A stretch of DNA of 59,821 nt from IMG/VR virus record IMGVR_UViG_3300018080_000197, positions 1 through 59,821 of that record; one strand, 5' to 3'. Positions 5,508-19,790 of the stretch are shown here, piece after piece. The first letter of the stretch is position 1. Every line of letters starts with the position of its first letter. The position numbers and the translations under genes were made by a program. This DNA is from a virus (Duplodnaviria > Caudoviricetes). Below the pieces are notes generated by a model. It was not told the DNA's origin. It worked only from the letters and a program-made list of their open reading frames with translations, and made no database searches.

Positions 5508-6710
5508 ATGGCAAAGACGCAAGGCAAGTCCAGGACCTCTGTGTTCCAGCAGAGAATGGGCAAAATGCAGGCCAACTATGAAGCCTCCAAGGAAAACAGG
5601 TTCGGAGGCAAGTTCCCGGACGGAACGTTCCGGTTCCAGCTTCAGGAACTCGAGGGACGGGAGTCCAGGTCCTCTAAGGGGGACGATGGTCTTCCGAGAC
5701 TGTTCGTCTACGGCGAACTCTACTGCATGGAAGGCGAGAACGTAGGCAAAATCTTCCGGCAGAACTTCATGGTGGATACGGACGGCGGACTGTCCATGCT
5801 GTGCCAGTTCCTGGAGGACCTCGGCGGAGAACTCCCCGAGGAAGCCAAGGACCTGGAAGAGGCTATAGCCGAGGTCGCCGATCGTGCGCCCATCATTCAG
5901 GGAACTGTTTCCACGTCGGACCGTGGTTTCCAGAATCTGCGGGTAGACCGTCTGCTCCAGGAGAGCGCGGAGAAGGCGGAGGGGGAGTCCGGCGGAGACG
6001 ACGACGGTGACAGCGCCACAGAGGGACAGGGAGAGGAATCCGACGCGGAGGAAGCGATTACCCGCGAATGGGTAGCCGACGCCACCAGAGACCAGTTGGC
6101 GGAAGTCATTGACGCCTACGGTCTGAGCGTCGAAGTCCCCCAGCGTGTGACCACCAAGAAACGCGAGGAAGTCCTTGCGGCGCTGGTGGAGGAAGGCGTC
6201 ATAGAGGAAGAGGAAGAGGAAGAACCTGCCGATGGTGGTTCGGACGGTGACGCCTCCCAGAACGACGCCCCTCCCGCCCTGTCGGCGGACGACTGCCTGA
6301 AGATGGAACCGGAGGCGCTGGCCGAAGCGGTCAAGGACTTCGGTCTGGACGTCAAGGTCCCCAAGAAACTCACCAAGAAGCGCAGGGACCAAATCATCAT
6401 AGCCTTGGACGAAGCTGGCGCTTTCGACGCGCCTGCGGAGAAGGCTCCCGTCCAGGCCAAATCCGGGAAGGCGGCGGCGGGAAAACCGGCCGCACCGGCC
6501 AAACGGACTCTGACTCGCAAGAAGAAAGAGTCCGAGGGTCCGTCTGTGGACGAGCTGCGGGAACTGGCGGCGACTCTGGGAGTCACCGTGGAGGACGACG
6601 CGGACAGGGACGCCGTGGTTACGGCTATCAACCTGTATGAGTATCAGCGTTCCGAACTCACGGATGACGAAGTCGCCATGCTGGAATCCATTGGCGCGGA
6701 CCTCAAATGA
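5508..6710 (+). CDS. ssDNA-binding-like protein with long acidic region and helical repeats
   Basis: N-terminal beta-rich domain (FPDGTFRFQL...GKIFRQNF...FQNLRV) typical of SSBs after Sak4 genes; strong RBS AGGAGAAAGGA. Confidence 0.6.
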   Translation: MAKTQGKSRTSVFQQRMGKMQANYEASKENRFGGKFPDGTFRFQLQELEGRESRSSKGDDGLPRLFVYGELYCMEGENVGKIFRQNFMVDTDGGLSMLCQFLEDLGGELPEEAKDLEEAIAEVADRAPIIQGTVSTSDRGFQNLRVDRLLQESAEKAEGESGGDDDGDSATEGQGEESDAEEAITREWVADATRDQLAEVIDAYGLSVEVPQRVTTKKREEVLAALVEEGVIEEEEEEEPADGGSDGDASQNDAPPALSADDCLKMEPEALAEAVKDFGLDVKVPKKLTKKRRDQIIIALDEAGAFDAPAEKAPVQAKSGKAAAGKPAAPAKRTLTRKKKESEGPSVDELRELAATLGVTVEDDADRDAVVTAINLYEYQRSELTDDEVAMLESIGADLK

Positions 6711-6725
6711 CGGCCTGAGCGTCAC

Positions 6726-6757
6726 GGGGACCGGGGGTTTCTTCGCCTCCGGTCCCC
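6726..6757 (+). other. stem-loop just upstream of the DNA polymerase start
   Basis: GGGGACCGGGGG / CCTCCGGTCCCC, no U-tract. Confidence 0.55.
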
Positions 6758-6768
6758 ACTCTCCCACC

Positions 6769-8562
6769 ATGCGGAATGACCTGCCTACAGTAGCGTATGA
6801 CGTTGAAACGACCGGACTCCACATACACAGTGGAGCACGGATGTTCGCCTATGTGGTTACAGACGAAACGGGTAGTTCAGAGGTGAAGCGGTTGGACGGT
6901 TCCCCGGTCAGACGCCTGACCTCCAGGAAACACCTGGACAGCGTGTGGGATGACTCCCAAAAGGGGAGGCAGGCCAAGACTATGCACAACGCCAAGTTCG
7001 ACCTTCAGGCCACGGAAGTATATCTTGGAAAGCGTCTGGAAGGGCACGATATACACTGCACACATAAGATGGCCCATATCCTACAAAACCATCACCATGA
7101 CCTGAGTCTGGATAATCTGGCGTGGGAACTGGCGGAGTATCCCAGACAGGACGCGGCCATGAAGCGGTTGGCCAAAGTCTACGGCGGAGGGAAGTTGCGC
7201 TATGACAAGGTTCCGGAACGAGACATGACCCAGTATCAGATAGCGGACGGGGAACGCGGGATGCTGCTGTTTTTGTTCTTCTGGCCCAAGATACTAGCCA
7301 ACCCCAAGTGGTTGGAGTGTTACAACGTAGAACGAGAACTGATATGGACAACCATGCGGATGGAAGAACGTGGTCTTATGATCCGCCCTAAAGAGACTGG
7401 GAAACTAGTTGTGGAACTGGAGGACAAGGTAGATGCTTTGCAGGAGAGATTGTTTGACATGGTGGGTTGGCGTTTCAACCCCCTGAGTGACGACCAGTTG
7501 CGTAGGGTCCTCTTCAAGAAGCTGCGGCTTCCCGTGGGGAAGATGACCAAGAAGTCCAATAAGCCCTCTACGGACAAGAACGTATTACATGACCTGAAGG
7601 AAACCACCAACCATCCCGTGATAGACTTGATCCTCCAGATACGCGCATACACCAGAGGGGCGGGGACAGTGGGAAAGTATCTGGATTTGGCGGATGACGG
7701 CTGGATCATTCATCCCACTATCAATACCTGTAGGGCAATCACTGGACGGGAATCTTCGGAACACCCCAACCTCCAGAACGTGGAGAAGGAAGGCGTTCTC
7801 CTGAATCCCTACCCTGTAGCGGCTAGACGCTGCTTCCGCCCCAGAGTGGGATATGTGAACATACACGTGGACTACTCCGGGATAGAAATGCGTCTGTTGA
7901 TCTTCTATTCCAGGGACAAGAAAATGATAGCTTGTCTGAACACGGGGGACGGCGACGTTCACGCCTTGGCCGCTGCTGTGTTCTTCCAGGGTAGATTCAC
8001 AGAGGCGGAGAAGGACGCACGGAAGGTCTTACGCGGCGCTACCAAGAATGCCAACTTTGCCATTCCGTATGGAGCACAACCGGCCAAGGTAGCCGCAACG
8101 CTGGGGATGACTCTCCGGGAGGGAACCGCCGCATTCAGGCGCTACGGCAGAGAGTTCCCGGACATAGTGGCTTTGAACCGCCGCATTTCCCAGCAAGTGG
8201 AGGCGGAAGGCTTTGTGACCACCATCTTTGGGAGAAGGCTTCACGTTCCCCGTAACAAAGCCTATATGGGCACCAATTACCTCATTCAAGGCACAGGAGC
8301 ACAGATTCTCAAACGGGCACAAAACCGCGTCCACCGTTACAACGAGGAATACACGGGAGGGGAAGTGCGGTTGTTGCTGCCCATACATGATGAAATAGTC
8401 ATAGAGTATCCACGGAGCAGGTTGAAGGACCTTCCTGGGTATCTCAAAGACATACGGGACCTGATGGTGGACTTCCCCGAATTCGATATCCCGCTTGACG
8501 TGGAGGCTGGTATGTCCACGTTATGTTGGGCAGAGAAACGGGAGTTGACCATTCCAGACTGA
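6769..8562 (+). CDS. polA: family A DNA polymerase with 3'-5' exonuclease
   Basis: ExoI DVETTG, ExoII HNAKFD, motif A DYSGIEMR, motif B RGATKNANFAIPYG, motif C IHDE; start codon uncertain. Confidence 0.95.
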   Translation: MRNDLPTVAYDVETTGLHIHSGARMFAYVVTDETGSSEVKRLDGSPVRRLTSRKHLDSVWDDSQKGRQAKTMHNAKFDLQATEVYLGKRLEGHDIHCTHKMAHILQNHHHDLSLDNLAWELAEYPRQDAAMKRLAKVYGGGKLRYDKVPERDMTQYQIADGERGMLLFLFFWPKILANPKWLECYNVERELIWTTMRMEERGLMIRPKETGKLVVELEDKVDALQERLFDMVGWRFNPLSDDQLRRVLFKKLRLPVGKMTKKSNKPSTDKNVLHDLKETTNHPVIDLILQIRAYTRGAGTVGKYLDLADDGWIIHPTINTCRAITGRESSEHPNLQNVEKEGVLLNPYPVAARRCFRPRVGYVNIHVDYSGIEMRLLIFYSRDKKMIACLNTGDGDVHALAAAVFFQGRFTEAEKDARKVLRGATKNANFAIPYGAQPAKVAATLGMTLREGTAAFRRYGREFPDIVALNRRISQQVEAEGFVTTIFGRRLHVPRNKAYMGTNYLIQGTGAQILKRAQNRVHRYNEEYTGGEVRLLLPIHDEIVIEYPRSRLKDLPGYLKDIRDLMVDFPEFDIPLDVEAGMSTLCWAEKRELTIPD

Positions 8563-11811: not shown

Positions 11812-12522
11812 ATGGCTCGACGACGAATCACCAAGAAGCCGCGACCGGAAGCCGTTGTGGGGCGCGCGGTCACGTCCCCGGAACATGACTTCAGCGGGAA
11901 GGGAGGTCATTGGGGACGCAATGCCGCAGAACTGAAACGGTTGGTTGCGGAATACGAGAAGGTCCCTCTGGACAGTCTCCGGCCGTGGAAGGACAACCCC
12001 CGGATCAACACAGAGGCTATCCCCGTGGTGGCCGAGCTAATCAAGCAGCACGGCTTCGCCGGGGTAGTAGTAGCTACGCCGGACGGCGTGATACGCGCGG
12101 GACACACACGCTATGCCGCTCTGGTTTCCCTCCAGCAGGACCCGGACTTTGCTGGGGAGAAAGGGACGGTCTGGGTTCACTGGAAGAACTTCCCCACAGA
12201 GACGGCGGCGGAAGCTTATGCCCTTGCAGACAACAAGTCCGCAGAACGCGCCGACTGGGATCATGCCAAGCTGGCCAGATTGTTCAAGCAACGGAACACG
12301 GCGGACCTGGAGACCTTGCGCCAGTTCTCCGGGTTCAAGCAGCGGGAGATAGACTGGCACAGCGGACCCAGAATAGACCCGGAGAAGCTTCCTGACTTTG
12401 AAGTTCCAGCCAAGAGCTACACGGTCCGGATAGACAACGTTGACCCGGACGATTGGGAGACTGTTCTGGAACTGGTCAACAAGGCGTTGGAGGACACGGG
12501 ATATGCTGCCCAAGTTTACTAG
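11812..12522 (+). CDS. ParB/Srx N-terminal domain protein
   Basis: LRPWKDNPRIN, IKQHGF, IRAGHTRYAA and YALADNK; ParB type commonly linked to phage DNA-modification genes. Confidence 0.85.
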   Translation: MARRRITKKPRPEAVVGRAVTSPEHDFSGKGGHWGRNAAELKRLVAEYEKVPLDSLRPWKDNPRINTEAIPVVAELIKQHGFAGVVVATPDGVIRAGHTRYAALVSLQQDPDFAGEKGTVWVHWKNFPTETAAEAYALADNKSAERADWDHAKLARLFKQRNTADLETLRQFSGFKQREIDWHSGPRIDPEKLPDFEVPAKSYTVRIDNVDPDDWETVLELVNKALEDTGYAAQVY

Positions 12523-13549
12523 GCACGGTCACTCCGATTACGTCCACGTTTTGGTTGCCTACAACTACCTCCGGGGGAAGGACGGCATAGACCAGATACG
12601 CAGACTGACTAACAACCCCAACCTGTGCGTGTTGCTGGACAGCGGCGCTTTCATTGCCCACAGAACCCAAAAGGACATTGACCTCCAGGAGTATATGGAT
12701 TTCGTCCGGGAGGTGGGTCCGGAACTGTTCGGCTACTTTGCGCTGGACGTGATAGGCGACGTTGACGCCACGCTGCGTAACCTGGAGACCATGCGGGAGG
12801 CAGGGTTGACGCCGTGGCCTGTCTTCCAAATCAGCACAGACCGTGCGGATTTCAGGACCACAACGGAGGGCGCCTCCGTAGTGGGTATAGGTGGACTGAA
12901 TGAGCGGGTGTGGCCTTGGACCAGAAGCGCCAGATTGTCATACCTGAAGATGATGCGGGAATGGTCCCTGGACGCCGGAGTAGGTCTGCACTTGCTAGGA
13001 TATGCGGACCCGCCGGTTCTGGAGGCGTTCCAGCCGTTTTCGGCGGACTCCAGCACTTGGTTCAACGGACAGAGGTATGGGAGGGTGTTCCTCTACGCCG
13101 GACGTGGGAAATGGTTGCGGCTCTATAGGGACAATTGGCGCAAGAAGATGACTCCTGAAGCGGAATTGGAAATCACGCGGGCAGGCTACAGCGTGGCGGA
13201 CCTGGAGAATCCGGAACTGTGGACCAACACCCGCGAGAACTCGGAATCCGGAACCAACTTCTTGGCCAATCTCATGGCGCGTTCATGGGTCAAATTCTCA
13301 CTGGAGTTCTTTGCCCAGTTCACGATACGGGTGTTTCTGGTGGCGGATTCGGGAATACGTCACGGGAATCAATACCCCTTGATCCGGGAGGCTGGGAGGA
13401 TTCTTGGACGTTCTTCCCCAGCGACGGGGGAGACCTCACCGCGGCGGATAACCAAGACCCGGAAAGCCACAGACCGGGGAGTTCACGTCAAGAAGGGAAC
13501 GCCTGTGGAGTTCCCTGTAGTCAGACCACAACGGAGGTTTGGAGAATGA
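12503..13549 (+). CDS. dpdA: DpdA-like DNA guanine transglycosylase (TGT fold)
   Basis: LLDSGAF, ALDVIGD, GIGG, LHLLG and SADSSTW motifs; directly upstream of queC. Confidence 0.8.
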   Translation: MLPKFTRHGHSDYVHVLVAYNYLRGKDGIDQIRRLTNNPNLCVLLDSGAFIAHRTQKDIDLQEYMDFVREVGPELFGYFALDVIGDVDATLRNLETMREAGLTPWPVFQISTDRADFRTTTEGASVVGIGGLNERVWPWTRSARLSYLKMMREWSLDAGVGLHLLGYADPPVLEAFQPFSADSSTWFNGQRYGRVFLYAGRGKWLRLYRDNWRKKMTPEAELEITRAGYSVADLENPELWTNTRENSESGTNFLANLMARSWVKFSLEFFAQFTIRVFLVADSGIRHGNQYPLIREAGRILGRSSPATGETSPRRITKTRKATDRGVHVKKGTPVEFPVVRPQRRFGE

Positions 13550-14262
13550 GCGAGAAACGTTGCGTGTTGGCCCTTAGCGGAGGAATGGATTCCTCCACGC
13601 TGTTGTATCACTTGCTGGAAAGGGACTGGGAAGTCTCCTGTCTGGCATTCGACTACGGACAGCGCCACAAGAAGGAACTGGAGTGCGCACGCCAGATAGG
13701 GAGGTGTGCAGGAGTCCAGGTCTCCACTGTGAATCTGGGAGACATGGCGCGTGTCATCTTCCCCACGGAATGTCTCACAGGGGGTCCAGAGGAAGTCCCG
13801 GACGGTCCGTTCACGGGCGCTTCCATGCGGGTGACTGCTGTTCCCAATCTGGCCATGATCCTGATTTCAATCTGCGCGGGACACGCCATTTCCATCGGAG
13901 CAAAAGCTCCAAGTGGCTACCACGTGGAAGCCTACATGGTAGCATTCGGTTGCCACAAGCGTGAGACGTGGACCTACCCTGATAACAGGGTAGCATTCAC
14001 ATACCCTATGATAGAAGTGCTTTCCAAGTGCTACTATGAACCTGTGGAACTCCTGACGCCGTTTGTGGGTATGTCCAAACAGGCCGTGTTACGGAAGGGA
14101 CTGGACCTACATGTTCCGTTTCACAGGACGTGGACGTGCTACAACGGGATAGGTCTTCCCTGCGGCAAATGTGGCGCGTGCATGGAGCGTCTGGAAGCCT
14201 TTCGTCTGAATGGACGGCCGGACCCGTTGAAATACAGGGACGAATCCGGCTGTTGTGGTTAG
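13546..14262 (+). CDS. queC: 7-cyano-7-deazaguanine synthase (divergent)
   Basis: LSGGMDS, FDYGQRH, YPD, TWTCY...PCGKCGACMER; ATGA overlap with dpdA. Confidence 0.92.
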   Translation: MSEKRCVLALSGGMDSSTLLYHLLERDWEVSCLAFDYGQRHKKELECARQIGRCAGVQVSTVNLGDMARVIFPTECLTGGPEEVPDGPFTGASMRVTAVPNLAMILISICAGHAISIGAKAPSGYHVEAYMVAFGCHKRETWTYPDNRVAFTYPMIEVLSKCYYEPVELLTPFVGMSKQAVLRKGLDLHVPFHRTWTCYNGIGLPCGKCGACMERLEAFRLNGRPDPLKYRDESGCCG

Positions 14263-14368
14263 GAGACGCTCCAGGACGGCAATTTCAGGAGATAACTGGT
14301 GTCTCAGGACCTTTTTAGGGTTACGCGCGGCCTGAGTGACAGGCGCGCGGCTTGCTGGAGGTGAAAGA

Positions 14369-14845
14369 ATGGTTACGGTCACTGTGGTTTTGAGGTGGGA
14401 AGCTGCACACAGACTCCAGAAGGTGGACAGCAAGTGCAATTCCCTGCATGGACACTCCTACAGGGCAGACATTACCGTAGGGTGTCACTGTCTGAGCGAA
14501 GCCGGGATGGTCATGGACTTCGGGGAGTTGAAGGAACTGCTATGGGCACACGTTGTCAAACCGTGGGATCACGCTATCCTTTTGTGGGAGGAAGACGTTG
14601 AACTGCACAGCATGGCTATCCATATGGGAAACAAGTTGGCTATCTTCCCCGACGACGTCACAGCGGAGTGTCTGGCGGAGACCTTGCTGTCCAAGTGTAA
14701 GGGCAGACTATTGGCATACATGGACAAGACAGCCACGGGAGGCAGTGGGTTGTTCGTGTCCCGAGTCAAAGTCTTCGAGACGGACTCCTGTTGGGCGGAA
14801 GCGGTCAACGACGGGATTTCGCAAGGAAGGCCGGTGACACCATGA
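14369..14845 (+). CDS. queD: 6-carboxy-tetrahydropterin synthase
   Basis: EAAHRL, CNSLHGHSY, DFGELK, WDH, TAE, FET. Confidence 0.93.
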   Translation: MVTVTVVLRWEAAHRLQKVDSKCNSLHGHSYRADITVGCHCLSEAGMVMDFGELKELLWAHVVKPWDHAILLWEEDVELHSMAIHMGNKLAIFPDDVTAECLAETLLSKCKGRLLAYMDKTATGGSGLFVSRVKVFETDSCWAEAVNDGISQGRPVTP

Positions 14846-15615
14846 TAGTCCAGAACATCTTTGTCAGTGTGGAGGGCGAAACTACTCTGGGAGGTCCTTT
14901 GCAGTGGACTACGTTCGTGCGCTTCAAAGGGTGTAATCTCCGCTGCTGGAAGGATTCCGGCGGGTGTGATGCTCCGGAGGCATTGGACGGCCGTGTAGAG
15001 TATGCTTGTGAGGAACAAACTCCAGAGAAATTCGCCAGTCACATTGTCTGGGGAATGAAGATAGGACACTATCCCAAACGCCTGACCCTTACAGGGGGAG
15101 AACCCCTTCTCCAGGAAGAGGACCTGTTGGAGTTTGTCCATTTGGTCCGCGAAGACGTGCTGGGTCCCGTGGAAGTGTGTCTGGAAACCAATGGGTCCGT
15201 GCCTCTTTCCGAGGTGGTTTGCAAGGTTATGGATTGCATCATCATGGACTTGAAACCGCCTTCCAGCGGAGAATCTGAACACGTCTGCTGGGAGAATCTT
15301 CAACGGCTGGAACCCGAAGATTTCGTCAAGGTAGTGGTCTCCACTGTAGAGGACCTGGAATGGGCGGCCAAAGCATGGTGGGTCAATGCTCCACTGTGGA
15401 ATGACCGGAATGTTCAAGCGCCGGGATGGTCCATAGGCGCTAAGATGGAATCAAGTATTATGTCGTCGAAGGATCAACCGTTATGGGCTACAGCATATAC
15501 AGGACTCACTCCCCAGCAGATAGCAGACTGGATACGCCAGCATGGTATGTGGAAATGGCGTCTGAACCTCCAGTGTCACCGCTGGTTGTGGCCGTGGGAA
15601 ACGGAGGGAGTCTAA
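14842..15615 (+). CDS. queE: 7-carboxy-7-deazaguanine synthase (radical SAM)
   Basis: FVRFKGCNLRC-x6-CD, LTGGEPLLQ, LETNG, MDLKPPSSG, LNLQCH. Confidence 0.92.
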   Translation: MIVQNIFVSVEGETTLGGPLQWTTFVRFKGCNLRCWKDSGGCDAPEALDGRVEYACEEQTPEKFASHIVWGMKIGHYPKRLTLTGGEPLLQEEDLLEFVHLVREDVLGPVEVCLETNGSVPLSEVVCKVMDCIIMDLKPPSSGESEHVCWENLQRLEPEDFVKVVVSTVEDLEWAAKAWWVNAPLWNDRNVQAPGWSIGAKMESSIMSSKDQPLWATAYTGLTPQQIADWIRQHGMWKWRLNLQCHRWLWPWETEGV

Positions 15616-16091
15616 TGGGCGTCTTCGGCGGCGCGCAAGGTCTGGCGGATTTCATACAGAACCTGGACGGTCTGTTCGGATTCATCCGGACGGTCAAGGC
15701 ACACCCGGAGTTCCACTTCCTCACGAATGATACGACCGGCCTGTGTGAGGGACGCTATGAACTCTGGATAAGCGTGGAGTGGGAAGAGAAGATGTTGCTC
15801 CTATTGAAGCCGTCCACACGGGAGGGACTGACCGGCAAAGTCCACCTAGCCACTGCTCAGAATAGCGCCAGTTCGCGAATAGAGGTCAAGTTCCAGAAGT
15901 GGTTCCAGAACTGTGGACGTATTTGCACCCTGGAAACGTTGACCATTCTGGGGCAGGCCATTGCAGACGCTACGGACGGGATAGTAGCGCTGGACAAACG
16001 GAAACAGGAGATAGTGTGCAACAGACCCACGGCTGAACTCCTAAAGTCGGCCGACGAGGTGGAGAATGGGAAAGATACTGACAAAAGATGA
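15615..16091 (+). CDS. hypothetical protein
   Basis: TAATG overlap with queE; RBS GGAGGGAG. Confidence 0.65.
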   Translation: MGVFGGAQGLADFIQNLDGLFGFIRTVKAHPEFHFLTNDTTGLCEGRYELWISVEWEEKMLLLLKPSTREGLTGKVHLATAQNSASSRIEVKFQKWFQNCGRICTLETLTILGQAIADATDGIVALDKRKQEIVCNRPTAELLKSADEVENGKDTDKR

Positions 16092-16626
16092 ATCCTTCCG
16101 GTTGTATCAATTGGGCGCATTCGGGAACCGCGTCAAACAGTGGGATAGCCTTCCGGCTGTGTGGAGGGATGATACCTACCACGGGAAGATAGTCATACGG
16201 TCCAGGAAAGGGGGAGGCGGACCCTGCCGATATGACATTGATCCCACGTGGAACGCTGTCAATGACGAACTCCAGAAACCCAAATGGGCAGGACACCACA
16301 GATACGTGTTCTTCAATCAGGCTATCCCCGTTGACCGGATAGTCCTGAACGCCGAAGTAGCGGACCTTCCCCAGCCTCCGGGACTGGTCATGGCGTATTC
16401 CACTCTAGCTACCCATATGCGCACGGCGTTGAAACAAGCGTGCAGGGTAGCGCAGGGTTGGGAGGTCATACGGATCATACGTAGCGTGTGTGATCCCGTA
16501 GCGGCGGATTGTCTGGAGGCGCTGTTAGCGGAGTATCCATCCCACGCCGTGGAGTTCACGGTTTTGGACAGGTCCATAGGGGACCTGGGCTGGAATACCA
16601 TAGTGTGGGAGGTCAGGGCATACTAG
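16066..16626 (+). CDS. hypothetical protein, possibly ATP-grasp-like
   Basis: RBS GAGGTGGAG; C-terminal VEFT...IVWEVR resembles the ATP-grasp ending (weak). Confidence 0.55.
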   Translation: MGKILTKDESFRLYQLGAFGNRVKQWDSLPAVWRDDTYHGKIVIRSRKGGGGPCRYDIDPTWNAVNDELQKPKWAGHHRYVFFNQAIPVDRIVLNAEVADLPQPPGLVMAYSTLATHMRTALKQACRVAQGWEVIRIIRSVCDPVAADCLEALLAEYPSHAVEFTVLDRSIGDLGWNTIVWEVRAY

Positions 16627-16639
16627 CGGAGGAATCACA

Positions 16640-16933
16640 ATGGAACCGCATATAGTGGCCGAAATTCACAATGCAAGACTGGTCTGTTTTGACAAGACGT
16701 GGGGACAGAATCCCCCGCAAACGGAACAGATAACCATTCTGGAAATCAAGCAACAGGACGCTATGGGGGAAACCGCATGGCGTGAAGTCCTGCGCTTGGT
16801 AGATGGAAGAGTAGGCAAATCGGGTAGTTCCCCAAGCGTCAATACACTAAAATGGGCTGTGGACCTGTTGGTTCAATTGGTGGCTTCTGCACACTACGTA
16901 AAGGAAGAGGGAACGGATGTTGATACTGATTGA
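16640..16933 (+). CDS. hypothetical protein
   Basis: RBS GGAGG; 97 aa. Confidence 0.65.
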   Translation: MEPHIVAEIHNARLVCFDKTWGQNPPQTEQITILEIKQQDAMGETAWREVLRLVDGRVGKSGSSPSVNTLKWAVDLLVQLVASAHYVKEEGTDVDTD

Positions 16934-17531
16934 CTGTGACGGCGTGGTAGTGGACCTGTTCTCGGCCTACTGTGACCACGTGTGTGTAGGCGGGATGCAC
17001 GAGAAGGTCCTACAGGCTATGTCCTATGGTCCCTCTGACAAAACGTGGGTCAAGGCTGTAGTCACAGCGGACAACAGACGCTTGGAGGACGTGCAGCGAA
17101 CTACGGATATCCTGTTCAACACGGTTCCCCCGGAGTGGTGGTCCTCTCTCCCAGCATACCCATACGCACGGGAGGTGGTGGAACTGTGCAAGCACTACGG
17201 GTCCGTCTGTTTTGTGACGCTGCCCTGGAAACCGTCAGACGCGGGAGGGAAGCTGGCGTGGCTGGAGAGGGAGTTCCCGGAGGTCCCGCGCGCCATTATC
17301 AGCAACCGGGAGGTTCTGGCGGCGCAAGGCGTGGTTCTGGTGGACGACAATCCGGACAACACCAAATTGTTCCGGAGAAGCGGCGGGTTCGCAGCAACCT
17401 TCCTCCAGCAGTGGACCCGGACGGCAGACAATGACGTGCAGGGTCCTTTGACGGCAGACCACAGGCTAAATGACCTGCGGGAGAAGCTGGACGCTATCTC
17501 GCGCCTGACCCGCAGACGGAAAGGAAGATGA
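16917..17531 (+). CDS. HAD-family 5'(3')-deoxyribonucleotidase-like
   Basis: Motif I IDCDGV, FVT, KLAWL and LVDD. Confidence 0.85.
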   Translation: MLILIDCDGVVVDLFSAYCDHVCVGGMHEKVLQAMSYGPSDKTWVKAVVTADNRRLEDVQRTTDILFNTVPPEWWSSLPAYPYAREVVELCKHYGSVCFVTLPWKPSDAGGKLAWLEREFPEVPRAIISNREVLAAQGVVLVDDNPDNTKLFRRSGGFAATFLQQWTRTADNDVQGPLTADHRLNDLREKLDAISRLTRRRKGR

Positions 17532-17532
17532 C

Positions 17533-17907
17533 ATGGGAATGGTGATAACCGAACTGGGAAACGCCGAGGATTGGCGGTTCGTTCGGGCGGAAAAGACAGC
17601 AGAAGACGGCAACGTGGAGTTCCGCTGGGTCGCCAGCAAGCGGCGCGTGTTCAATGAGGAGTCCCCGGACGGGACTTGGTGGCAAACGGACGTGATTCTC
17701 CGCGTGGAGAATGACGACGTCGCCGCCTACGGCGTCAGGATAGAGAAGGGGGATTCCGTTGGAGAGAAAGGACGGCCGGACCCCTTCCCCACGTGGGTAG
17801 TGATGATGTTGGCCGGGTTCAAGACCACTTTTCTGGAGCAGGGTCAAGGGCAGGCGCAGTCTCCCATAGTGGGGATTGACGGGAAACCCGTGGCCGGAGT
17901 GAACTAA
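17533..17907 (+). CDS. hypothetical protein
   Basis: 124-aa ORF contiguous with neighbours. Confidence 0.6.
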   Translation: MGMVITELGNAEDWRFVRAEKTAEDGNVEFRWVASKRRVFNEESPDGTWWQTDVILRVENDDVAAYGVRIEKGDSVGEKGRPDPFPTWVVMMLAGFKTTFLEQGQGQAQSPIVGIDGKPVAGVN

Positions 17908-18203
17908 TGGCTAAGGGCAAGTCTACTCCCAGAGGGAAGCTTCAGTGGAGATTCGGACGCCTTCAGAAGCAATTCGAGAAGGCCAAAAAGCTGAACCCGG
18001 ATGACCCGGAGGATTGTGTCATGCCTCTGGGTTCTCACGCGGGGAAGACTCTGGGAGAGATTGCGGATGATGACGAAGGATTACTGTATCTGGACTACAT
18101 AGTAGGGCAGTGGGATGAAAGTCCGCTGGTCCAGAAGGTTTGCAGGGTTCTGGAGACGCCGGAAAGACAGGAACGTCTCCGCAGATTGTTGGAGGACGGA
18201 TGA
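17907..18203 (+). CDS. small protein with MPxGx[HY]xGK module (DUF3820-like)
   Basis: VMPLGSHAGKTLGEIA...YLDY. Confidence 0.65.
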   Translation: MAKGKSTPRGKLQWRFGRLQKQFEKAKKLNPDDPEDCVMPLGSHAGKTLGEIADDDEGLLYLDYIVGQWDESPLVQKVCRVLETPERQERLRRLLEDG

Positions 18204-18586
18204 TTCCGTCTGGAAAGGCTACAGAAATGGATAGAGGACCATTGAAGTGTCCGTTGACCGTCAATGCCATAATGGTGGAGGCGGATGCCCACGCGCACGA
18301 AGCGGGGTTCAGGGATTCCACGCATACGGCCACATTCGGAGAACACATAGCCTTGTGTCACTCCGAATTGTCGGAGGCGCTGGAGGCATTCCGCAAGGAT
18401 GGTATGGTCTCCATGCGCTTCACGGACAGCGGCAAGCCGGAGGGAGTAGGGGAGGAACTGGCCGACGTGATTATCCGCGTCTGTGACATGGCCATGTTGT
18501 TCAATATCCCCCTGGAGGATTGCATCCGTCACAAGATGCTATACAACCGCACGCGCCCCAAGCATCACGGCGGGAAGTCCATTTGA
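18200..18586 (+). CDS. MazG-like NTP pyrophosphohydrolase
   Basis: HSELSEALEA...EELADVIIR...KMLYNRTRP. Confidence 0.88.
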   Translation: MIPSGKATEMDRGPLKCPLTVNAIMVEADAHAHEAGFRDSTHTATFGEHIALCHSELSEALEAFRKDGMVSMRFTDSGKPEGVGEELADVIIRVCDMAMLFNIPLEDCIRHKMLYNRTRPKHHGGKSI

Positions 18587-18622
18587 CCCACACGGGTGAT
18601 TCCGTCTGGAGGGAGAACAAAC

Positions 18623-19648
18623 ATGCCGGAAACCACTAACGCACCAGTAGTTCCCAGACAACACGTAATGACGTGGCAAGAAGCATTGGCCCGATTGAAG
18701 GTCCTGGACGTGGACAAGCTGGGTCACAGAGTCTACGGAGTCCCGCGCGGGGGAATGTGTCTGGCCACGTTGCTGGCTCACGCCACTACCACGCACGTTC
18801 CCAGCCAAGCGGATATCATCCTGGACGATATCATTGACTCCGGACAGACACAGCGCAACTACAGGAACAAGTATCCGCAGGCGCGGTTCGTCGCCATTGT
18901 GGACAAGACCACGGACGGCTACACGTCCAAACACGTCACCCTGCCGGAACTGTGGCGCGCCGCCGCTGCTGGGGGTGAGAGCATCCCCGAGGACCCGCAC
19001 ACGTTTCCGGTGGACAAAGACATGGGCTGGATTACGTTCCCGTGGGAGATAGACGGGAAGGGCGATCCAGAGACGGCGGAAGGGCGGATAGCTGCGCAGG
19101 ATTCCGTGATACGCCTTCTCCAGTTCATGGGGGAGAATCCTCTGAGACAGGGACTGAAGGACACGCCGGACCGCGTGTTACGGATGTATCAGGAGTTGAC
19201 CAGTGGCTACGGAGAGAACCCCACAGCCCATTTGAAGGCGGCGTTTGACTCCGAATGTGATGAAATGGTAGTTGTCCGGGGAATCCGTTTCACGTCCCTG
19301 TGTGAACACCATCTTCTCCCCTTCACGGGGGACGTGGCTATCGGCTACCTCCCAGCCAACGGCCGTGTGGTCGGCCTGTCCAAGCTGGTCCGCGTGGTAG
19401 ACACACTGGCCAAGCGGCTCCAGATTCAGGAGCGGTTGACGGGGGAGATAGCGCAGACCATCATGGGGTTGGCCGGGGGATTGCACCCGTTGGGAGTGGG
19501 AGTGGTGGTCCAGGCGCGGCATTCGTGTATGGGTTGCCGCGGTGTCAAACGTCCGGAATCAGAGGCTGTTACCTCCGCTATGCTGGGGGTTTTCCGCGAA
19601 AAGCCGGAGGTCCGGTCTGAATTCCTGTCTTTGGTGAGGGACAAGTAG
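18623..19648 (+). CDS. folE: phosphoribosyltransferase-like domain fused to GTP cyclohydrolase I
   Basis: N-half GVPRGG, LDDIIDSGQT, WITFPWE; C-half TPDRV, SLCEHHLLPF, GLSKLVR, RLQIQERLT, HSCMGCRG. Confidence 0.92.
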   Translation: MPETTNAPVVPRQHVMTWQEALARLKVLDVDKLGHRVYGVPRGGMCLATLLAHATTTHVPSQADIILDDIIDSGQTQRNYRNKYPQARFVAIVDKTTDGYTSKHVTLPELWRAAAAGGESIPEDPHTFPVDKDMGWITFPWEIDGKGDPETAEGRIAAQDSVIRLLQFMGENPLRQGLKDTPDRVLRMYQELTSGYGENPTAHLKAAFDSECDEMVVVRGIRFTSLCEHHLLPFTGDVAIGYLPANGRVVGLSKLVRVVDTLAKRLQIQERLTGEIAQTIMGLAGGLHPLGVGVVVQARHSCMGCRGVKRPESEAVTSAMLGVFREKPEVRSEFLSLVRDK

Positions 19649-19655
19649 CGCAAAC

Positions 19656-19790
19656 AGGACGGATTACTGTGGAGAAATTCCAACAATCCCTAGATACTTA
19701 TAGACCTGTATTGTTCTGTTTAGTAGTTGTAAAGTTGTCAACAAGACGATACAGTATTGTAGAGGTCTAGGGATTGTTGGAAGAATCCCA
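19656..19790. repeat. AT-rich element A with a perfect 17-bp inverted repeat; inverted homologue at 59075-59212
   Basis: TTCCAACAATCCCTAGA (19678-19694) / TCTAGGGATTGTTGGAA (19766-19782). Confidence 0.85.

Follow-up and report, generated by a model that had tools for sequence, protein, structure and literature searches.

Why should the first enzyme of a viral 7-deazaguanine pathway, GTP cyclohydrolase I (FolE), carry a phosphoribosyltransferase (PRT)-like domain at its N-terminus, and what could such a domain do there? The question is raised by a gene of a tailed virus (Duplodnaviria; Caudoviricetes), whose IMG/VR record IMGVR_UViG_3300018080_000197 was analyzed over its whole length of 59,821 nucleotides, referred to here as the window. 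A first-pass annotation, made from the sequence alone, described the gene as a complete FolE preceded, in the same reading frame, by a compact type I purine PRT-like domain of the Gpt type. It offered three roles for the domain: salvage of guanine released by the DNA transglycosylase DpdA, phosphoribosylation of preQ0 or CDG, and regulation. The architecture is fully borne out by the structural, profile, Pfam and NCBIfam results given below, and the three roles fare unequally.

The fusion is encoded by a single reading frame. In the open reading frame (ORF) analysis of the window, one stop-free frame on the plus strand spans 18596/18623..19648. A ribosome-binding site, GGAGGGAG, is located at 18608-18615, the ATG at 18623 lies 7 nt downstream of it, and the MazG-like ORF on the 5' side stops at 18586. 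The 341-aa translation (P0001) contains VYGVPRGG (aa 37-44), IILDDIIDSGQT (aa 65-76) and WITFPWE (aa 136-142) exactly as first quoted, followed in the same frame by the complete FolE (PF01227, TIGR00063). A second assembly, which probably derives from the same sample and is not independent of the source, covers 18795-19700 in a single contig that crosses the domain junction and shows 0 differences and 0 gaps. Two further assembly matches (X2 and X3) span only 151 bases of the conserved FolE part. Mis-assembly of two genes was rejected, as the fusion is kept at 36-45% identity in dozens of contigs, and it is also contradicted by the second assembly. The in-frame fusion of a PRT-like domain to FolE is therefore confirmed as real, far beyond chance. 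Its features and those of the surrounding cluster are collected in Table 1.

Table 1. Positions of the fusion gene, its motifs and the neighboring pathway genes in the window.
Feature	Position	Strand	Remarks
Whole mini-PRT::FolE fusion ORF	18623..19648	+	341 aa plus stop; alternative GTG start at 18596
Predicted loop-less Gpt/XGPRT-like PRT domain	18659..19051	+	aa ~13-143; AF2, Foldseek, VIA, family profile
Loop I (PPi loop), PRGG	18743..18754	+	aa 41-44; aligns with XGPRT SRGG
Short connector, deletion site	18755..18814	+	aa 45-64; Gpt has ~35 residues there (beta2 - flexible loop II - beta3)
PRPP-binding loop III, IILDDIIDSGQT	18815..18850	+	aa 65-76, including DDIIDSGQT; NF006613 and PDB alignments
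VDK	18899..18907	+	aa 93-95; K95 aligns with XGPRT K115
Lineage-specific insert	18911..19021	+	aa 97-133; low-confidence model, one helix at aa 107-116
WITFPWE	19028..19048	+	aa 136-142; W136 aligns with XGPRT W134
GTP cyclohydrolase I (FolE, type IA)	19100..19636	+	aa 160-338; CEHH at 19301-19312
DpdA-type DNA transglycosylase	12440..13549	+	phrog_887 E 3.9e-23, phrog_7068 E 1.3e-13; predicted guanine source
QueC	13558..14262	+	PF06508 E 2.4e-44; phrog_1550
QueD	14336..14845	+	PF01242 E 1.8e-26; phrog_2389
QueE	14791..15615	+	phrog_2076 E 2.2e-30; Radical SAM / Fer4_12
MazG-like nucleotide pyrophosphohydrolase	18140..18586	+	phrog_3301 E 4.8e-28; directly upstream of the fusion

Curated thresholds identify the C-terminal half as a genuine FolE. 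PF01227 matches aa 160-338 with E 1.1e-65 and 220.9 bits against a threshold of 27, TIGR00063 scores 203.6 bits (threshold 181.6) and NF006826 scores 222.7 (threshold 162); phrog_2197 is matched as well. CEHH (aa 227-230) and HSC (aa 300-302) are present, and CEHH and H-x-C are presumably the zinc and catalytic motifs of FolE. C227, H230 and C302 are invariant in an alignment of 82 fusions, in which the conservation of all residues discussed here was counted. This half is of the same kind as the type IA FolE of the 7-deazaguanine clusters of, for example, Pseudomonas phages PaMx25, NP1 and iggy and of Escherichia phages 9g and CAjan.

The N-terminal half falls below the family models that would name it. 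PF00156 is absent from the window protein in a Pfam search even at E<=1, below its gathering score; among 150 relatives, 23 match the model at E<=1e-3 and 10 score at least 26.3 bits. Against the NCBIfam equivalog NF006613, the window protein scores 31.1 bits, over the PRPP loop alone, where the cut-off is 138 bits. The fold is nevertheless present in the AF2 model of the domain (pLDDT 84). With this model as query against the PDB, the top-ranked Foldseek matches were chains of XGPRT or related 6-oxopurine PRTs at probability 1.0, and all 23 of the matches listed at E<=1e-3 were 6-oxopurine PRTs. Structure comparison with VIA gave Z 9.3 to 6kp5 and 8.5 to 7kl6; the four best matches were 6-oxopurine PRTs (Z 8.0-9.3) and the best 33 rows were all PRT-fold proteins. 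The family profile aligned with PDB XGPRT (E 1e-8) over two collinear blocks that extend from the N-terminal KYVVTW to PWD. A search of 1.84e9 representatives with the N-terminal part alone as the query found 447 proteins at E<=1e-3, and 39 at the stricter E<=1e-10. Predicted structure and sequence profiles together fully support the assignment of the domain to the type I PRT fold, nearest to Gpt/XGPRT.

XGPRT of Escherichia coli and Yersinia pestis (PDB 1a95, 1nul, 4jls, 5xtk and 6kp5) is the best match in both structure and sequence. Both show the same order of elements: a KYVVTW-like start, SRGG/PRGG, DDxxD(T/S)GxT, the Lys after beta-5 and a terminal W-x-x-x-PW(D/E). In loop I, P41 and G44 are invariant in the 82 fusions and R/K42 occurs in 80. 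In the PRPP loop, D68, D69, G74 and T76 are found in 82/82, S/T73 in 82/82 and D72 in 80/82. Position 95 is K in 72 and R in 4 of the 82 sequences, and WITFPWE is similarly constrained (W136 79/82, P140 82/82, W141 81/82, E142 81/82). In the PDB alignment, D72, K95 and W136 correspond to XGPRT D92, K115 and W134, so that the purine-contact positions are matched at the level of sequence. The Asp at the first position presumably acts on purine N7 as the catalytic base of 6-oxopurine PRTs, the Lys at the second is taken here to have a role in binding O6, and the Trp at the third is assumed to stack on the purine. This Asp and Lys are hallmarks of 6-oxopurine PRTs. The PRPP loop is comparable to loop III of B. 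subtilis HPRT, which reads EDIIDSGLT in the available text of PMC6783271.

The phage domain differs from XGPRT in what lies between these motifs. Wherever both motifs were found in a relative (150 relatives were examined), PRGG and DD lie 23-34 aa apart, against about 50 in Gpt. The profile alignment has a gap here, in which family profile positions 46-55, about 10 residues, stand for XGPRT 51-85 (beta2, flexible loop II and beta3). By spacing and profile alignment, the beta-hairpin of flexible loop II, ~25 residues long, is missing family-wide. In 6-oxopurine PRTs, this loop closes over the active site, as described in the available text of PMC6783271. The phage domain is also unlike XGPRT in being fused to FolE, and the window copy has an added insert of 37 aa with pLDDT 53-60 in the AF2 model. 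The distance from the PRPP loop to W is accordingly 69 in the window; of the 105 relatives with both motifs, 104 have 32-50 and the remaining one has 78.

The fusion lies in a predicted 7-deazaguanine cluster. The dpdA-queC-queD-queE set found upstream is the one described for deazaguanine phages in the main texts of PMC10484667, PMC6884629 and PMC10516641. Those main texts describe FolE alone and do not contain the term 'phosphoribosyl'; their supplements might list the domain. Literature searches on DpdA, phages and phosphoribosyltransferases and on the fusion itself found no characterized PRT-FolE fusion, in agreement with the first-pass annotation, and no mention of a loop-less PRT domain on phage FolE was found in the literature searched. 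Pfam (E<=1) and PHROGs searches of the unassigned ORFs at 15483-18203 revealed neither a kinase nor a PRPP synthetase, and no phage guanylate kinase was recognized among the cluster genes by Pfam and PHROGs. The MazG-like protein directly upstream resembles the C-terminal half of another protein, a mini-PRT::MazG fusion (P0012), with 33% identity over 120 aa (BLASTP, E 2e-11), and it was considered as a second Rosetta-stone partner. This candidate was dropped: the family is general in phages, including actinophages (247 records), and a MazG-like gene occurs in 0 of 80 related loci, so its adjacency to the fusion is taken as unspecific.

A survey of domain architectures, as the first-pass annotation had proposed, showed the PRT::FolE fusion to be recurrent and widespread in IMG/VR relatives and cultured phages. 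In 65 of the 80 best IMG/VR relatives, the domain and FolE share one frame and lie inside Que clusters, and PF01227 is present in 106 of 120 listed profile matches. Between 32 and 34 cultured-phage records (PaMx25, NP1, VpKK5 and others) carry the fusion and are labelled solely "GTP cyclohydrolase"; all 32 matches of the N-domain among cultured phages are on FolE. In PaMx25, one ORF of 297 aa carries both domains; as deposited, however, folE begins only with the cyclohydrolase domain, and the N-domain is covered by a hypothetical gene called in a different frame. The fusion is thus not rare, and it has gone unremarked in cultured phages. Other arrangements also occur. One representative (P0017) has the domain fused to FolE2, which is non-homologous to FolE, and one (P0012) to a MazG-like protein. 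In two relatives (L119 and L120), the mini-PRT is a gene of its own, directly 5' of FolE. Several stand-alone mini-PRTs end in a helix that resembles the FolE N-terminal helix. Among related loci, some phages carry a separate full-length, loop-containing Gpt-like gene beside FolE: one such protein (L129) scores 134.1 bits against the NF006613 cut-off of 138, and another relative (L131) has the order QueE - PRT - FolE, with a PRT that matches NF006613 over its full length at 66 bits. DpdA is present in 15 of 17 fusion-bearing contigs of at least 30 kb. In one terminally repeated phage genome (G002/L013), the fusion and QueC/D/E are present and no DpdA was detected by phrog_887, phrog_7068, PF01702 or the window DpdA. 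Chromosomal paralogues in Dehalococcoidia have lost CEHH from the FolE half and keep the PRT motifs intact, which suggests an independent function for the PRT half. No conserved Que/DpdA neighborhood was found at these loci, and they are therefore uninformative on the role in phages.

The best-supported role is the one first proposed, salvage of the guanine released by DpdA to GMP, held tentatively at slightly less than even odds (a probability of about 0.45). In this reading, the N-domain is a stripped-down descendant of Gpt/XGPRT in which both the PPi loop and the PRPP/5'-phosphate loop are kept, together with the purine-contacting Asp, Lys and Trp positions, and the loop II hairpin is lost. 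DpdA would expel one guanine for each preQ0 inserted into DNA, and the domain, with guanine as its substrate and with catalysis proceeding without loop II, would still bind guanine and PRPP and make GMP. Host kinases would then convert GMP back to GTP, on which the fused FolE acts, so that the purine ring would be recycled into new preQ0. The same reaction would remove free guanine, a competitor of preQ0 for exchange by DpdA if it were left in place. The predicted XGPRT-type fold and homology, with constrained ligand-contact positions in the 82 fusions, favor this role. So do the linkage of the domain to FolE, FolE2, Que clusters and DpdA (in the 15 of 17 long contigs) and the separate full-length Gpt-like or mini-PRT genes in the same cluster position. 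The Dehalococcoidia paralogues, with intact PRT motifs beside a FolE half that lacks CEHH, also count in its favor. The family-wide absence of flexible loop II argues against it, as do the lack of a guanylate kinase among the cluster genes, the scores of the window protein below the PF00156 and NF006613 cut-offs, the genome without detectable DpdA and the Dehalococcoidia paralogues outside a Que/DpdA context. GMP is two kinase steps from GTP; the fusion therefore gives no direct channelling, which also counts against salvage.

The suggestion that the domain may be regulatory is judged less probable, though it is still a serious rival. The loop-less pocket would bind a phosphoribosyl ligand without turnover and tune the fused GTP-using enzyme. 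Candidate ligands are GMP, GDP, GTP, (p)ppGpp and PRPP, perhaps together with guanine or preQ0, which would report purine-nucleotide status or the level of the end product. The loss of loop II, which would leave the pocket permanently open, speaks for this role. In HPRT, an open loop II favors (p)ppGpp binding, and ppGpp binds where the substrates do, at loop I / loop III, according to the available text of PMC6783271; this behavior is consistent with a sensor. The ppGpp-bound PRT-like protein 5vog was the fifth-best VIA match (Z 7.9), and PyrR and PurR were also matched. Like the PurR effector domain, PyrR, 5vog and (p)ppGpp-inhibited HPRT, the phage domain has a PRT fold of the kind that binds PRPP, a nucleotide or an alarmone at loop I / loop III. 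The regulatory PRT-fold proteins nevertheless match at Z 4.1-7.9, below the 6-oxopurine PRTs, and none of them carries a cyclohydrolase domain. All three fusion partners (FolE, FolE2 and the MazG-like protein) use nucleoside triphosphates, and the model of the full-length fusion (pTM 0.80) is compatible with a fixed arrangement of the two domains. Stand-alone mini-PRT genes and full-length Gpt-like genes in the same cluster position, however, fit an enzyme better than a regulator in cis. The Asp that aligns with the catalytic base is kept together with the whole acidic pair, and in Dehalococcoidia the PRT motifs persist although the FolE half looks catalytically dead, which would leave nothing to regulate.

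Phosphoribosylation of a 7-deazaguanine is improbable, and this proposal found little support. ToyH-type PRTs belong to toyocamycin/sangivamycin biosynthesis. In the present case, the domain would use PRPP to phosphoribosylate preQ0, CDG or ADG and so open a route at the nucleotide level. A loop-less PRT that makes preQ0/CDG ribonucleotides in place of GMP, giving a DpdA-free route to deazaguanine DNA as in G002, is equally doubtful. By its description, ToyH is presumably alike in being a PRT linked to a 7-deazapurine base derived through FolE/QueD/QueE/QueC, and its setting presumably differs from the phage context, which has DpdA, an enzyme that uses the free base. The O6 / N1-H / 2-NH2 face, which in their assumed roles the conserved Lys and Trp would contact, is also present in the 7-deazaguanines. 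The near-invariant D72, in contrast, aligns with the Asp presumed to act on N7, an atom that 7-deaza bases do not have. The fusion does occur with QueC/D/E and no recognizable DpdA in G002/L013, and the available text of PMC10516641 notes deazaguanine phages without an identified DpdA. Campylobacter phages are fully substituted and have no identified DpdA in the main text of PMC10484667, but they match the FolE half only and are not among the 34 full-length or 32 N-domain matches. DpdA, an enzyme that inserts the free base, is encoded in the window and in 15 of the 17 long contigs with the fusion. Moreover, Pfam and PHROGs searches found no kinase or reductase set for a deazaguanine nucleotide in the cluster. 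Just as improbable is a remnant without catalysis whose value would be structural, such as help with assembly or solubility of the FolE decamer: the missing loop II, the 37-aa low-confidence insert tolerated by the window copy and the FolE-like terminal helix of several stand-alone members would fit it, but near-invariant ligand-binding residues across sequences only 35-50% identical are unexpected for a scaffold, and the domain is also found alone and on unrelated partners.

Guanine salvage bears directly on the economy of DNA modification. Where about a quarter of the phage guanines are replaced, one GTP is spent and one guanine is freed per site, and the published pathway schemes examined do not, in the parts available, state the fate of the released guanine. 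A 6-oxopurine PRT without the loop thought to be needed for catalysis would represent either a new minimal catalyst or a nucleotide sensor of a new class. This domain is present but unannotated in hundreds of phage genes labelled 'GTP cyclohydrolase I', among them genes of well-studied Pseudomonas and Vibrio phages, and the PaMx25 gene is mis-called in its deposited annotation. A salvage domain on the first enzyme of the pathway would, if true, close the loop from released guanine to new preQ0 and could explain how a high level of substitution is sustained.

The target ORF runs uninterrupted in a single frame from its best start, ATG 18623, which has GGAGGGAG 7 nt ahead of it, to the stop at 19646-19648. 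The three PRT motifs quoted in the first-pass annotation are all present (aa 37-44, 65-76 and 136-142), and the complete GTP cyclohydrolase I that it placed behind them was recovered as PF01227 at aa 160-338 (E 1.1e-65). This FolE half passes the TIGR00063 equivalog cut-off (203.6 vs 181.6 bits), carries both CEHH and HSC, and is an ordinary member of its own family. The junction of the two domains lies inside one Logan contig of the probable source sample with 0 differences or gaps, in an assembly that is not independent of the source. The fusion is supported independently by many diverged contigs in which the fused frame is kept.

The 59.8-kb virus contig has an estimated completeness of 92% (CheckV), a G+C content of 57% and nearly all genes on the + strand. 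Its 7-deazaguanine DNA-modification cluster sits between the terminase and a replication block composed of an SNF2 helicase, a UDG-superfamily protein, a PD-(D/E)XK nuclease, a family A polymerase, a primase and a Dam-type methylase. Five ORFs of the cluster (202, 186, 97, 124 and 98 aa; window 15483-16933 and 17533-18203) had no Pfam match in three lists (E<=1) and no PHROG match (E<=1e-3). The NT5C-like and MazG-like genes could be a nucleotide-clearing pair; the MazG-like family is widespread elsewhere, including actinophages without Que genes.

Features of the 7-deazaguanine cluster in the window
Feature	Position (nt)	Match or placement
DpdA-type transglycosylase	12440-13549	phrog_887, E 3.9e-23
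QueC	13558-14262	
QueD	14336-14845	
QueE	14791-15615	
NT5C-like 5'(3')-deoxyribonucleotidase	16917-17531	PF06941, E 8.5e-6; phrog_2643
MazG-like pyrophosphohydrolase	18140-18586	directly upstream of target ORF
mini-PRT::FolE fusion (target ORF)	18623-19648	+ strand, 341 aa

Curated models match the N-terminal part at the PRPP loop only, namely NF006613 (xanthine PRT) at E 1.5e-7, with 31 bits vs a cut-off of 138, and phrog_8995 at E 2e-7; PF00156 has no match in the target protein. A phmmer search of PDB sequences matched XGPRT at E 0.004 in three collinear segments, which are SRGG, the PRPP loop with K115, and W-x-x-x-PW. Residues 1-155, used as a query against 1.84 billion representatives, returned 447 relatives at E<=1e-3, 39 of them at E<=1e-10. 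A 27-relative profile aligned with XGPRT in two blocks (E 1e-8), with profile 1-45 on XGPRT 2-50 and profile 56-104 on XGPRT 86-142. The AF2 model of the domain, built from 144 sequences, has a mean pLDDT of 84, and its best PDB matches in Foldseek are all XGPRT chains (probability 1.0, E 6e-5, TM 0.47-0.55). A second structure scan of 48,161 chains, independent of Foldseek, ranked four 6-oxopurine PRTs first (6kp5, Z 9.3; 7kl6, Z 8.5; 4z1o, 8.3; 1vdm, 8.0), and 7kl6 superposes on the model with an rmsd of 2.8 over 108 residues. With XGPRT and 6-oxopurine PRTs as the top sequence, profile and structure matches, the PRTase fold first proposed for this domain is borne out.

Conservation was assessed in 82 aligned fusion proteins. 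P41, G44, D68, D69, G74, T76 and P140 are invariant, and position 73 is S or T in all 82. W141 and E142 are kept in 81 each, D72 and R/K42 in 80 each, W136 in 79 and K95 in 72, with R in four more. In the phmmer alignment, the XGPRT counterparts are R37, D88, D89, D92, T93-T96, K115 and W134. Their roles are presumably those of HGPRT/XGPRT, which are ribose/Mg binding, N7 base, 5'-phosphate loop, O6 contact and base stacking. The loop III of B. subtilis HPRT is EDIIDSGLT, and its loop I is likewise described in passages of PMC6783271. Loop I and the PRPP loop are 23-34 residues apart wherever both motifs were found among 150 representatives, compared with about 50 in Gpt, and about 10 profile positions replace XGPRT residues 51-85 in the profile alignment. 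What has been lost is the hairpin formed by beta2, flexible loop II and beta3. A further feature of the window copy is a 37-residue insert at aa 97-133, which is modelled with low confidence; a similar one occurs in only one other representative. Because the domain falls below the curated score cut-offs and lacks loop II, it is not filed as a Gpt. It descends from Gpt/XGPRT and is read as working alike, with a putative activity, and it is a loop-less, Gpt-derived subfamily that is typically N-terminal on phage FolE.

The one-frame fusion to FolE recurs in cultured phages, IMG/VR and protein sets. At least 80% of the fusion protein is covered in 34 of 405 matching cultured-phage records, and the N-domain alone matched 32 records, in each of which the gene bearing it is annotated as GTP cyclohydrolase. 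Carriers include Pseudomonas phages PaMx25, NP1, JG012, JG054 and Quinobequin-P09, Vibrio phage VpKK5, and Stenotrophomonas, Xanthomonas and Variovorax phages; in Sphingomonas phage MMDA13 the fusion is gp31 (295 aa). Both domains of PaMx25 (JQ067084.3; L001, 5862-6792) lie on a single 297-aa ORF at 5899-6792. In the record as deposited, folE starts only where the cyclohydrolase domain does, and a 124-aa hypothetical protein is annotated in a different frame. The best 80 IMG/VR relatives were picked by similarity to the entire fusion, which biases the fusion fraction upward: the PRPP loop is upstream of FolE and in frame in 65, which sit in QueD/QueE/QueC/DpdA clusters, all three motif patterns match in 46, and 15 match no motif pattern or have plain FolE. 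PF01227 is present in 106 of the 120 profile matches listed from a 5.8-billion-protein set and in 42 of the best 150 representatives, among which two have inteins within the FolE part and one (P0017) has FolE2. The mini-PRT::FolE fusions P0028 (422 aa) and P0135 (582 aa) have their FolE domain split, immediately ahead of the CEHH region, by an intein (Intein_splicing), which in P0135 is accompanied by an HNH endonuclease. P0017, a metagenomic representative of 564 aa, consists of a mini-PRT (aa 31-110), a Pro-rich linker of ~180 aa and FolE2 (PF02649, aa 290-557), and represents a separate, independent fusion with a type IB GTP cyclohydrolase, which is not homologous to FolE.

Separate genes and other partners were also found. 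Among 19 viral loci related to a stand-alone mini-PRT, 14 are fusions, two (L119 and L120, one protein in two records) encode mini-PRT and FolE as adjacent genes, mini-PRT first, and three encode full-length Gpt-like proteins retaining the hairpin. One of these three genes (136 aa) lies between QueE and FolE at locus L131, directly ahead of FolE, and another (156 aa) adjoins QueE at L129, scoring 134.1 bits vs the 138-bit xanthine-PRT cut-off. P0012 (217 aa) joins a mini-PRT to a MazG-like pyrophosphohydrolase homologous to that of the window (33% over 120 aa, E 2e-11). Mini-PRTs encoded alone (~130-150 aa; P0002, P0010, P0015, P0022, P0029, P0035 and others in the alignment of relatives) end in a helix, RxLQxxx, like the first FolE helix; they may be split-fusion remnants or carry a docking element.

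The strict motif pattern yielded only 29 loci in ~185,000 species genomes. These are canonical fusions on phage-sized MAG contigs, ordinary Gpt-like genes in CPR bacteria, and Dehalococcoidia/Tepidiformaceae chromosomal loci (L085, L092, L094, L096, L100, L101, L103, L106, L109, L111) with a mini-PRT fused to a FolE-like domain bearing CERH for the catalytic CEHH. In the last kind the H-x-C region is altered, with further substitutions, and the PRT motifs PRGG, DDIIDSGxT and FPWE are intact. No Que/DpdA genes lie beside these loci, whose neighbours are unrelated metabolic genes.

The domain may serve guanine salvage (probability roughly 0.45), a reading with putative catalysis, a putative substrate and a putative physiological role. 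DpdA swaps DNA guanine for preQ0, as described in parts of PMC10484667 and PMC10516641; therefore, every base modified costs one GTP at FolE and releases one guanine. With PRPP, a PRT of the Gpt type would convert the freed guanine to GMP, which host kinases could return to GTP. Salvage is favoured because the domain descends from XGPRT, all ligand-contacting positions outside loop II are strictly conserved, independent fusions reach both kinds of GTP cyclohydrolase I, and full-length Gpt-like genes hold the same position in some clusters. The chief objection is the absent loop II. That absence would suit a nucleotide sensor, the main rival role and less probable than salvage. Also consistent with a sensor are the binding of (p)ppGpp and nucleotides by the open PRT pocket of HPRT (sections of PMC6783271) and the use of nucleoside triphosphates by all fusion partners.

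Phosphoribosylation of preQ0 or CDG, also raised at first pass, is improbable. The co-occurrence of DpdA argues against it: of the 17 contigs of at least 30 kb that carry the fusion, the gene was found in 15 (9 by tblastn, 6 of 8 by phrog_887), and L034, one of the two exceptions, breaks off within the cluster at the very point where relatives have DpdA. Campylobacter phages, described in parts of PMC10484667 as fully substituted with no DpdA identified, match the FolE half only, which also speaks against it. In its favour, phage record G002 (L013/L113; 39.7 kb, direct terminal repeats) has ParB-like - QueD - QueE - miniPRT::FolE with QueC distant, and no DpdA was found there with phrog_887, phrog_7068, PF01702 or the window's DpdA; G002 either encodes a transglycosylase that has diverged or follows a route that needs no DpdA. 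An inert scaffold is equally improbable, being hard to reconcile with the conservation pattern.

Full-text literature searches found no mention of the domain, and the main texts of PMC10484667, PMC6884629 and PMC10516641 nowhere contain 'phosphoribosyl'. The fusion is real and widespread, has been overlooked and can be tested directly; guanine salvage, its putative function, would add incrementally to a known pathway.
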